Source: Escherichia phage K1ind2
DNA length: 42,765 nt
Direction: 5' to 3' (one strand)
Sequence record: NC_041898.1
Positions 24,171 to 26,883 of this stretch are shown here, piece after piece. The notes beneath the pieces are model-generated. The model was given only the letters and a program-made list of their open reading frames with translations. It did no database searches and had not been told where the DNA came from. How positions within the stretch are numbered: the first letter of the stretch is position 1; the number at the start of each line of letters is the position of its first letter. Position numbers and translations under genes: made by a program.

Positions 24171-24352
24171 TTCTTACCTTCGCTTTTCTTGAAACTGCGC
24201 TTTATATCCGGCAGCGTGTAGCACCGTGATTTTTCGTATTTACCGTCCGAGCTTACCAAAACAAAGCTGTTGCCGTCTTTTGATATGTACTCGATGGCGA
24301 AAATATTAAATGAATGTACGCTGTATATTTCATCGCCAACATTAAGTTTCAT
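24167..24352 (-). CDS. Hypothetical protein
   Basis: 61 aa; ATGA overlap with helicase stop. Confidence 0.4.
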   Translation of the reverse strand: MKLNVGDEIYSVHSFNIFAIEYISKDGNSFVLVSSDGKYEKSRCYTLPDIKRSFKKSEGKK

Positions 24353-25773
24353 TTCTTACCTCGTCTCTTCATGTAATTAAGCAATTCTTCCTGGACCGAT
24401 TTTTTCTCGTCGGTGCGCGCGGCAACAACCTCGTCCAGCGTGTCTTTAGCAACGATGTGATACAGGAACACCGGTCGCTCGTGCCCCGCCTGTTTCTGGC
24501 GGACCGGGCCTATTCGCTCGACAACCTGCAAATAGTGTTCAAGATTCCAGCCTTGCGAAATAAACGCCAGATGATGCCCGCCGTCCTGTAAATTCAAACC
24601 ATGCCCGGCTGACGCAGGATGCACGCATAAGATTTCGATTTCCCCGCGGTTCCACGCTTCCATCTGCTTATTGCCCTTAGCGCCTTTGGCGAACGCCTGT
24701 GCTTGTGGGAATCGCTTAAGGATACGCTCCAGTTCGTGCTTAAACTGATAGGCTACCAGTAACGGTGCGCCCTGTAACTCCTCAACAATGGACTCAAGCG
24801 CATCCAGTTTCGTATCGTGCACTTTCTCCCAGTCTTTCGTTGCTTCGCCGTCTGGCCCGGATACATACACGGCACCGGATGCAATCTGCAGGCACTTCGA
24901 CGTCTTCGCAGCAGCGTTAGCCGCTTCAACTTCCCCGCTCTCCAGTTCCGCGAATAACTTTTCCTCCATATCGATGTACGCCTGACGCGCCTTCTTCGGC
25001 AGGTCGATTTCAACCGGTACAATAATCGGCGCTTCGCAACCAAACCACTCGGCGGCGTCAATCGTGAGACTAATGTCTTTCATCTTCTGATGAATCTCAT
25101 TATCCGCACCCGGTCGTGCGTGATACTCCCGCGCCATCGCGGATTTCCCTTTCTGTACCGAGTTAAACCAGCGGTCTGTGAATGCCGTGTACGAAGAACC
25201 AAGGCGCTCGCCAGCGTCGATAAACCAGTTCTGCCCCCACAAGTCCTTGAGGCCGTTCGGCGACGGTGTGCCTGTCAGGTTAATGAAACGCTTAACCTTT
25301 CCGAACGCCACTTTGCTTAGCGCCTTAGCCCGTTTGCTTCCTCCAGAACGGCTACGGAAAGATTTCAGCTTCGTGCTCTCATCAGCAACGATAACCGTAA
25401 AAGGCCAGTCGTCTTTGCCGTAGTAGTCAATCAGCCACTCGATAACTTCGTAGTTTGTGCACACCACGTTAGCATCTGACTCCAGCGCCGCGATACGGCG
25501 CTTCTCTGAACCGGTTGCGTCTACGACACTCAGACAGGGGAAGTTCCAACGTGCCTGTTCCGCGGGCCACGTACCTGACGCAACACGTAAAGGAGCCAGA
25601 ATTAACACTCGGTCGTCGTCATTAAGTTGCCCATTACGGAACAGTCGATTGAGAACCCACAACGTTGACCCCGACTTACCGCTGCCCATGCTCGCCCAGA
25701 TATTGCAGCGATGGTGCCGCAGCATGAACGAAGTCATGAGCTTCTGGTATTCGCGCCTTTGAAACTTACTCAT
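24349..25773 (-). CDS. SNF2-family (superfamily 2) DNA helicase
   Basis: 474 aa; Walker A ASMGSGKSGST; DEST-type Walker B (VIVADESTKLK); C-terminal helicase domain motifs. Confidence 0.8.
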   Translation of the reverse strand: MSKFQRREYQKLMTSFMLRHHRCNIWASMGSGKSGSTLWVLNRLFRNGQLNDDDRVLILAPLRVASGTWPAEQARWNFPCLSVVDATGSEKRRIAALESDANVVCTNYEVIEWLIDYYGKDDWPFTVIVADESTKLKSFRSRSGGSKRAKALSKVAFGKVKRFINLTGTPSPNGLKDLWGQNWFIDAGERLGSSYTAFTDRWFNSVQKGKSAMAREYHARPGADNEIHQKMKDISLTIDAAEWFGCEAPIIVPVEIDLPKKARQAYIDMEEKLFAELESGEVEAANAAAKTSKCLQIASGAVYVSGPDGEATKDWEKVHDTKLDALESIVEELQGAPLLVAYQFKHELERILKRFPQAQAFAKGAKGNKQMEAWNRGEIEILCVHPASAGHGLNLQDGGHHLAFISQGWNLEHYLQVVERIGPVRQKQAGHERPVFLYHIVAKDTLDEVVAARTDEKKSVQEELLNYMKRRGKK

Positions 25774-26695
25774 TTACCGCCCCCATGAATGCCTTTATAA
25801 ATTCAGCGGCTACTTGCGGGACGATGGCATTGCCATAACCGCGCAATCGTCCCACTCTGGCGGGTATCCCATTAGCCAGCGGGAATGTGCCGGGTTCAAC
25901 TGGCCTGAATTTTCCATCACGGCATCCGAGCCAGTCAGTATCTGACCAGAAGCCGTGATGCGGATTGGTTGTGTTATTTTCAGACCCTGCTCCGTCGAGT
26001 AGTCCAGCCTGTCGAATGTCCTGTCCTTCCCGTCCTTGCGAATCACTGTCTCTCCGCTCCCCCTGTAGTCGTTCGCTGTCGGTGTAGGCCAAGCCGCCAT
26101 CGCAGCGGCCCATCCCAGTTTGTTCGGTTTCGTCCTGCCGTCTGTGCTGCGCATGTTCACGTCGTTTGTTATCAGTGATACCGCCGGTGTGGGCCAGTCT
26201 GTGAGCGCCGAAGAACAGTCTGTCGCGTTTGTGCGGTGCGCCGACGCTACAAGCTGGGAGTACGGCAAACCCGACGGCGTAGTCTTCTCCTTCCAGGTGA
26301 GTTTGTAAATCGCACATCCACGATTTTGCAATTGCTGGCGCAACCTGCTCCCCAAAGAGGACTGGAGGTCGGCACTCGCTGATAAGGTCGAGGAACACAG
26401 GTGCGAGGTGTCTCGGGTCGAACTGTCCGAGTTGCTTTCCCGCCGCGCTAAACGGTTGGCAAGGCGGGCTTCCCGTCCAGAGAGGCGCATCTTCCGGAAC
26501 TCCCGCAAGTCTGAGCGCGAGAGGCCAGCCGCCGATACCCGCGAAAAAATGACACTGGGTGAACCCGTCAAGGTCTTCTGGCTTAACTTCGGTAATGCTT
26601 CTTTCATCTACAACTCCAAAAGGTATGTGACCCTGTTTTATCAACTCACGCAGCCACGCGGCTGCGCCTTTATCCCATTCATTGTAATAGTTCAT
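25766..26695 (-). CDS. DNA cytosine-C5 methyltransferase-like protein (frame anomaly in middle)
   Basis: 309 aa; motif I FAGIGG, motif IV GSPPCQPFSAAGK, ENV-like FGEQV, motif VIII APHKRDRLFFG, C-terminal motif X GNAIVPQVAA. Central 100 aa are low-complexity, while an overlapping same-strand ORF (25810-26607) reads a protein-like segment ending in a motif IX-like LNPAHSRWLMGYP. Confidence 0.65.
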   Translation of the reverse strand: MNYYNEWDKGAAAWLRELIKQGHIPFGVVDERSITEVKPEDLDGFTQCHFFAGIGGWPLALRLAGVPEDAPLWTGSPPCQPFSAAGKQLGQFDPRHLAPVFLDLISECRPPVLFGEQVAPAIAKSWMCDLQTHLEGEDYAVGFAVLPACSVGAPHKRDRLFFGAHRLAHTGGITDNKRREHAQHRRQDETEQTGMGRCDGGLAYTDSERLQGERRDSDSQGREGQDIRQAGLLDGAGSENNTTNPHHGFWSDTDWLGCRDGKFRPVEPGTFPLANGIPARVGRLRGYGNAIVPQVAAEFIKAFMGAVNE

Positions 26696-26883
26696 TTCGC
26701 CACCAGAACTAACTCTTTACGCCCGAACGCCGTAACGTTACCGGTTACATCTTCGATAACCAGTTTACCGTTCGACTCGACGAACACCGTATCAACGGCA
26801 ACAGGTTGACGTGTCTTAACGTTGAAAATCATGTCACCCGGTACGATGTCACGTGCTGGTTTGCGGTCATATTCGTGTTTCAT
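26692..26883 (-). CDS. Hypothetical protein
   Basis: 63 aa; first gene downstream of minus-strand promoter copy at 26917-26945. Confidence 0.4.
   Translation of the reverse strand: MKHEYDRKPARDIVPGDMIFNVKTRQPVAVDTVFVESNGKLVIEDVTGNVTAFGRKELVLVAK

Follow-up and report, generated by a model that had tools for sequence, protein, structure and literature searches.

How can a DNA methyltransferase gene function if its signature motifs are divided between two reading frames? This question is raised by a locus of Escherichia phage K1ind2 (NC_041898.1), analysed here within a stretch of 42,765 nucleotides (nt) that is referred to as the window. The longer of two open reading frames (ORFs), ORF A (309 amino acids, aa), carries motifs I, IV, VI and VIII of the cytosine-C5 methyltransferases and has the motif X sequence GNAIVPQVAA near its C-terminus; the shorter one, ORF B (265 aa), is read from the same strand in another frame and ends in LNPAHSRWLMGYPPEW, which resembles motif IX. 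Both had been located correctly by a first-pass annotation of the window, which gave no strand (it is the minus strand) and offered two kinds of explanation: compensating frameshifts around the target-recognition domain, caused by sequencing error, gene decay or recoding, or an atypical enzyme.

The second option points in the right direction, as the locus is a nested gene pair like that of M.EcoHK31I. Judged by the coding signals in the sequences, it specifies two proteins: the nested ORFs are both kept open, they are under independent purifying selection, and B has a start of its own. Both ORFs almost certainly encode real proteins, and the pair probably forms a heterodimeric cytosine-C5 methyltransferase of the EcoHK31I type that modifies the phage DNA. 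M.EcoHK31I itself, from E. coli HK31 (recognition sequence YGGCCR), is described as a heterodimeric C5-methyltransferase (Lee, Kam & Shaw, 1995, as summarised in PMC2836561 and PMC3404938). According to these summaries, its beta gene lies wholly within the alpha gene in another frame (PMC2836561), alpha contains motifs I-VIII as well as motif X, beta contains motif IX, activity needs both chains, and internal methionine codons can start beta (PMC2836561; PMC3404938).

The region is 100% identical to the corresponding sequence of Escherichia phage K1ind3 (GU196281; Kagunavirus, Guernseyvirinae), whose record annotates A as 'putative C-specific methylase' and B as 'putative Mte8-like protein'. 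In the literature, the name 'Mte8' led to just a single phage-genomics paper, in which the annotation is repeated. Both ORFs were previously in GenBank, and the window pair is a further example of the known M.EcoHK31I-type arrangement.

Purifying selection in both reading frames

The start of B lies 88 nt downstream of that of A, which places B in the +1 frame of A. Selection on the two frames was assessed in 57 genes with pairwise A identities below 65%. In one test the A protein was kept fixed, its synonymous codons were shuffled and identity in the B frame was scored; in the reciprocal test B was kept fixed. With A fixed, identity in the B frame reached 0.45 in a first overlap block (null 0.24, z-score 70) and 0.61 in a second one (null 0.31, z 74). 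With B fixed, identity in the A frame was 0.51 in block 1 (null 0.21, z 103) and 0.69 in block 2 (null 0.32, z 75), and z lay between 75 and 103 for A in all conserved blocks. The control flanks gave z 4 upstream of B (A1-28) and z 2 downstream of it (A295-308). From the N-terminus of B the values rise from z 7 (aa 1-45) to z 13 (aa 46-76), so that conservation of B sets in near motif IV of A. The middle of A is scarcely above its null with B fixed (0.17 versus 0.13). By these sequence comparisons, strong purifying selection acts on both frames of the two blocks (65 and 46 codons).

Avoidance of stop codons was assessed in the same genes. Codon shuffling with A fixed predicts 3.4 stops per gene in the B frame (median probability of an open frame, P(open), 0.008), and 6.2 stops for B of the window alone (P(open) 5e-5). 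In the variable middle of A, 2.85 stops per gene would be expected (median P(open) 0.036), and none was observed in the 57 genes. Taken together, the codon-shuffle and stop-avoidance tests argue that both frames are read through by ribosomes.

Might the openness and conservation of frame B be a passive by-product of a conserved A protein and a G+C-rich codon usage? A conserved A does constrain its +1 frame, as is apparent from the null identities of 0.24-0.31 and from the small excess in the flanks (z 2-7). However, in the overlap blocks the B frame shows about double the identity given by the null (z 70-74), and the stretches in which B is conserved best are exactly those in which A is unconserved. 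Shuffling of the codons would leave B open in about 1% of the genes or fewer. The third frame is open for a median of only about 61 codons, as against about 300 codons for B. The probability left to a by-product is minute.

Conservation of the nested layout across phages

A tblastn search with B retrieved 244 phage records with identities down to about 30%, the hosts being Escherichia, Klebsiella, Salmonella, Rhodobacter, Burkholderia, Xanthomonas, Vibrio, and cyanobacteria. Full-length A and full-length +1-frame B are both open in Burkholderia phage BcepC6B, Rhodobacter phage RcSalem, Vibrio phage Fayden, and cyanophage Cr-LKS3. Two sets of loci were then surveyed: 160 loci recognised by B-frame peptide patterns in viral and genome collections (phages and prophages), and 80 loci recognised by N-terminal patterns of the A frame, a set free of selection bias for B. 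The loci (G+C 0.51-0.69) come from Enterobacterales, Burkholderiales, Rhodobacterales, Vibrio, cyanobacteria, Desulfovibrio, Verrucomicrobia, and Acidobacteria. In the B-pattern set, B is read in frame +1 relative to the N-terminus of A at 161 of 162 loci, the C-terminus of A is in frame with its N-terminus at the same number (161/162), and A is uninterrupted at 159 of the 162. The A-pattern set holds a +1-frame B homologue at every locus (80/80) and an intact A at all but one (79/80). No B was found outside an A gene in the survey; the two loci without a match to the A N-terminus are a contig end and a remnant.

These counts bear on the explanation that the first-pass annotation had named first, namely that sequencing errors, or compensating frameshift mutations in a decaying gene, produced the two frames. 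A single sequence does have this look, and at one survey locus (L148, see below) a 1-nt indel indeed swaps the frames. Yet hundreds of phages and prophages that were sequenced independently share the identical layout, purifying selection acts on both frames, and the indels that distinguish relatives have lengths divisible by three in both ORFs, as in phage K1H, which carries both ORFs with the same 105 nt lacking in each. Error or decay can practically be dismissed. The 105 nt (35 codons) present in K1ind3 are also absent from K1ind1 and others.

The sole exception to the frame rule, L148 (2695-3737), stems from a metagenome-assembled Burkholderiales contig, in which a 1-nt indel after AAGKRGG fuses the N-terminus of A to B and leaves the remaining A as a separate ORF. 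The indel probably arose by faulty assembly or by a recent mutation, and because of it the locus, the one candidate for a single-chain relative with B-like sequence in the catalytic frame, was rejected as such. Weak tblastn matches in EBPR siphovirus 2 and SalP219 again lie in frame +1 relative to the methylase annotated there. A is also disrupted at L158, L167, and L219.

In EBPR siphovirus 2, gp44 (JF412297; L250:295-2790) is an A protein with an insert of about 400 aa at the catalytic Cys of motif IV. The junctions (…TGSCP/CFPAGALV…VVHN/CQPFS…) read like those of an intein. An intein-like insert within motif IV requires that A be one long frame. B of this phage (417 aa, 1514-2767, five WPTP modules) begins inside the 3' end of the insert coding region, and the arrangement agrees with a single long A chain accompanied by a distinct B chain.

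Database annotation of the pair is inconsistent, with both ORFs recorded in K1ind3 and K1H, only A in Golestan and only B in Cr-LKS3; B is usually labelled 'hypothetical'. For Cr-LKS3, a Cylindrospermopsis phage (L007:1179-2093), GenBank has B as a 'methyltransferase' (1306-2043) and omits a 304-aa A with all catalytic motifs.

ORF A: a catalytic domain with a disordered middle

The five motifs of A are invariant or almost so in 41 homologues, and an alignment with M.HhaI covers motifs I and IV-VIII. The Pfam family PF00145 matches A with 60.9 bits (gathering cut-off 22; E 1.8e-16), over aa 68-169 only. In the protein database at least 8000 A-like proteins are found, with PF00145 in all among the matches listed. 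An AlphaFold2 model built from 41 sequences (mean predicted local distance difference test score, pLDDT, 66) contains a confident Rossmann-type large domain (aa 1-170) and a confident C-terminal helix (aa 293-308). Foldseek matched this model to M.HhaI, M.HaeIII, DNMT1, and DNMT2 over about 188 columns, which corresponds to the large domain only. The best Foldseek match of the model (window 25769-26695, minus strand) is 8yf3, a DNA cytosine C5-carboxymethyltransferase with carboxy-S-adenosylmethionine (Cx-SAM) (E 1.6e-7), ranking marginally above M.HaeIII and M.HhaI.

The low-complexity centre that the first-pass annotation had described is borne out: aa 166-247 are unconserved, and aa 191-254 are predicted to be disordered (pLDDT about 30). 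A target-recognition domain with motif IX was looked for at this place, between motifs VIII and X of the A chain, and was not found. Like the monomeric enzymes M.HhaI and M.HaeIII (PF00145), A combines motifs I, IV, VI, VIII, and X with the predicted fold of the large domain; unlike these, it has no small domain and no motif IX in the same chain. A appears to have the catalytic domain of the PF00145 family but not the full monomeric architecture.

The first-pass annotation had named two observations that would speak against a gene split by frameshifts, namely homologues with the same low-complexity insert in one continuous frame and a similarity of frame B that is not significant. The former holds, since A matches phrog_363 of the PHROG database end to end (aa 1-308, E 9e-89), from which it follows that homologues carry the same kind of middle in one frame. 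The latter does not, as B has a PHROG family of its own, phrog_1008, distinct from that of A (aa 3-260, E 1.1e-64).

ORF B: a separate start and a motif IX-like end

B appears to have an independent start of the form GGAG-N6-ATG. A TAG in the B frame immediately precedes its ATG, an in-frame ATG for B is found at A residues 24-45 in 56 of 57 homologues, and a Shine-Dalgarno (SD) core lies upstream of it in 38 of the 57, compared with a background of 10%.

This start also bears on recoding, the remaining variant of the frameshift proposal. Programmed frameshifting, +1 after motif VIII and then -1 after motif IX, would yield one polypeptide with motifs in canonical order, and both frames are conserved. 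Such a fusion would, however, omit B aa 77-141, a strongly selected part (z 70), and it would not need a stop-free middle of A, which is nevertheless kept open although unconserved. If the frame changed after motif IX, GYP and GNA would be only about 10 residues apart, a -1 slippery heptamer (X XXY YYZ, B phase) occurs between motif IX and the B stop in none of 54 genes, and B has its own conserved ATG and SD sequence. Recoding is therefore considered highly improbable.

At least 7911 B-like proteins are present in the protein database, none with a Pfam domain. Eight residues near the C-terminus (L237, P239, S242, R243, W244, L245, G247, and W252) are invariant in 39 diverse B proteins. When the B-family profile was compared with M.HhaI (hhalign), the sole match joined B235-253 to M.HhaI 272-290 (RKLHPRECARVMGYPDSYK), which is motif IX; the match is weak (E 0.2), and of the M.HhaI sequence used, the first 168 residues agree with the alignment mentioned above, whereas the C-terminal part is provisional. 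The resemblance to motif IX claimed by the first-pass annotation is thus present, at this modest level. Further upstream, the structural model of B has a confident helix (aa 73-95) and hairpin (aa 101-123). A Foldseek search of the PDB with the B model gave chance-level matches only (e.g. cyanase, E about 0.1), which were set aside as evidence.

B of the window holds two WPTP modules (26185-26196 and 26080-26091, minus strand). Across 231 loci, B proteins have between 0 and 5 W[PVA]TP modules, and this number may be linked to target specificity. At three survey loci the B frame continues beyond the stop of A into a further domain (L021:1959-3434, L106:1552-2385, and L174:2333-2914). The extension of L021 is an MT-A70 adenine methyltransferase (Pfam E 8e-25; DPPW motif); by sequence reading, that of L106 resembles a Cas4/PD-(D/E)XK domain with a Cys cluster and that of L174 an HNH domain. 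These extensions could be real fusions or the result of lost stop codons.

A probable two-subunit methyltransferase

The layout of the window agrees with the published description of M.EcoHK31I in that ORF B lies entirely inside ORF A on the same strand in another frame, and in that A, like the alpha chain, holds motifs I, IV, VI, VIII, and X. The large chain of M.EcoHK31I reportedly comprises 309 aa, as does A of the window, and the small chain is said to have 176 aa, compared with 265 aa for B. Two further differences exist. No linked restriction enzyme lies near the window gene, which has replication genes as neighbours, and the target-recognition domain of M.EcoHK31I has been assigned to alpha, whereas here the conserved folded material expected between motifs VIII and X is in B and not in A.

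Two other systems help to place the pair. M.AquI of Agmenellum quadruplicatum (CYCGRG) is described as a two-chain C5-methyltransferase with motifs I-VIII in alpha and IX-X in beta, separated by a single cut in the variable region (PMC3404938). The enzyme proposed here likewise consists of two polypeptides, but its A chain keeps motif X in frame with motifs I-VIII, and B is nested in the A gene, whereas beta of M.AquI follows. The Rz/Rz1 genes of phage lambda, as cited in PMC9409062, are nested on the same strand in the +1 frame, and their products act together. A/B shares with them the position of one gene wholly within the other; its overlap is far longer, with about 265 codons, of which about 110 are strongly conserved in both frames across phyla.

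On this basis the following scheme is proposed. A would be translated from its own ATG and would provide the catalytic large domain that binds S-adenosylmethionine (AdoMet), followed by the linker and, after a small conserved block, by the motif X helix. B would be translated from the internal GGAG-N6-ATG, as a chain of 265 aa or, via an internal start, a somewhat shorter one, and would comprise the conserved helix-hairpin, a variable number of WPTP modules and the motif IX-like C-terminus. By analogy with M.EcoHK31I, both would assemble into a heterodimer, in which motif IX would come from B, as would probably much of the small domain for DNA recognition that is absent from A. The enzyme would methylate the phage DNA during replication, a timing proposed from the location of the gene in the replication module, and would thereby protect it from host restriction. 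Assembly of A with B, the requirement for B in catalysis, target recognition by B and the anti-restriction role are what we infer from the comparison with known enzymes.

Several observations weigh against this scheme. The assignment of motif IX in B is not statistically significant by itself. Neither B nor a profile of 39 B sequences found a match in Pfam, in NCBIfam, or among the PDB sequences. B alone is modelled poorly (AlphaFold2 with a 62-sequence alignment, pLDDT 53), aa 75-125 being the sole confident part. The DNA of the motif IX-like segment reads PLANGIP in the A frame; this could be a degenerate motif IX in its own right, in which case A might be self-sufficient. The fusions of B to MT-A70 and, by sequence reading, to HNH-like and Cas4-like domains hint at a role that may not be tied only to A. 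Likeness to M.EcoHK31I refers to layout and published description, and no database match of A or B carried its name. Finally, binding of B to A and the need for B in methylation are arguments by analogy.

Most of these points would suit a B that is a real, separate protein but no methyltransferase subunit, e.g. a DNA-binding, regulatory, or anti-defence protein, next to a self-sufficient A. Neither methyltransferase models nor solved structures match B significantly, A has a G-x-P segment of its own (PLANGIP) before motif X, and the fused domains, of which MT-A70 is confirmed by Pfam, are compatible with independent functions. In the survey, however, B was never met outside an A gene (161/162 and 80/80 loci, the rest being truncated contigs or remnants). 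Its invariant C-terminus aligns with motif IX of M.HhaI, if weakly (E 0.2), and with nothing else, A has no conserved folded segment at the position of the small domain, and the only studied enzyme with the same gene layout is described as needing both chains (PMC2836561). An independent function of B is thus regarded as unlikely, and a two-subunit methyltransferase is the preferred interpretation.

A more far-reaching version of the two-subunit proposal, which we consider conceivable but rather doubtful, is that B represents the whole small target-recognition domain. It would then be a separable specificity subunit with 0-5 WPTP modules, in some phages fused to other enzymes (MT-A70 confirmed by Pfam, nuclease-like domains by reading).

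Organisation of the locus

The positions of the features discussed above are collected in Table 1. Part of the DNA of motif X reads AMPSSRK-stop in the B frame, which ends B. The start of A (ATGA, 26692-26695) is shared with the stop of an upstream 63-aa ORF, and a helicase ORF (24349-25773) begins 8 nt ahead of the A stop (25766-25773). This tight packing of genes in the replication module suggests translational coupling. Two antisense ORFs lie opposite the methyltransferase and helicase genes (26408-26809, plus strand, 133 aa; 25457-25762, plus strand, 101 aa); they have no GenBank annotation, and no evidence of their being genes was found.

Table 1. Features of the nested methyltransferase locus (window coordinates).
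Feature	Residues	Position	Strand	Basis or remarks
ORF A (alpha-like subunit)	309 aa	25766-26695	minus	C5-methyltransferase large domain with motifs I, IV, VI, VIII; disordered linker; conserved pre-X block; motif X
ORF B (beta-like subunit)	265 aa	25810-26607	minus	nested inside A, +1 frame
A motif I, FFAGIGG	A 50-56	26528-26548	minus	AdoMet binding; sequence, M.HhaI match
A motif IV, PPCQPFS	A 77-83	26447-26467	minus	catalytic Cys79; sequence, Pfam, M.HhaI match
A motif VI, FGEQV	A 114-118	26342-26356	minus	ENV equivalent; sequence, Pfam, M.HhaI match
A motif VIII, HKRDRLFF	A 155-162	26210-26233	minus	sequence, Pfam, M.HhaI match
A middle	A 166-247	25955-26200	minus	unconserved among homologues, low-complexity, mostly disordered linker, stays open; same DNA as the conserved WPTP modules of B
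A motif X, GNAIVPQVAA	A 288-297	25805-25834	minus	sequence; confident model helix aa 293-308 begins within the motif
Shine-Dalgarno-like GGAG		26614-26617	minus	6 nt upstream of the B ATG (26605-26607)
B motif IX-like segment, LNPAHSRWLMGYPPEW	B 237-252	25852-25899	minus	near the B C-terminus
Dual-coding block 1	A 106-170 over B 77-141	26186-26380	minus	A: motifs VI-VIII; B: helix, beta-hairpin, start of first WPTP module
Dual-coding block 2	A 248-293 over B 219-264	25817-25954	minus	A: pre-X block GFW..DW..CRDGK.RPVEPG... and motif X

Implications

The nested layout, so far known from one studied enzyme, M.EcoHK31I, is present in thousands of phages and prophages. The phage family has been partly noticed before, as annotations and PHROGs attest; literature searches found no description of the nested pair as a phage-wide family, which is no proof of absence. 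Recognition of the pair as one two-subunit enzyme would put right how two protein families, each of roughly 8000 or more entries, are annotated. As a same-strand overlap with two blocks that are dually conserved from enterobacterial phages to cyanophages, the pair offers a good natural test case for the maintenance of dual coding. Should B prove to be the whole recognition domain, A/B would rank among the longest and most widespread conserved same-strand overlaps in bacterial viruses, and the assignment of the target-recognition domain of M.EcoHK31I to its alpha chain would be due for re-examination.

Naturally split methyltransferases have been used as platforms for targeted methylation (PMC2836561), and the A/B family would provide thousands of natural variants for such tools. 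A cytosine methyltransferase encoded by a phage also bears on escape from host restriction. This may matter in practice, as the K1-specific Kagunaviruses are candidates for phage therapy.

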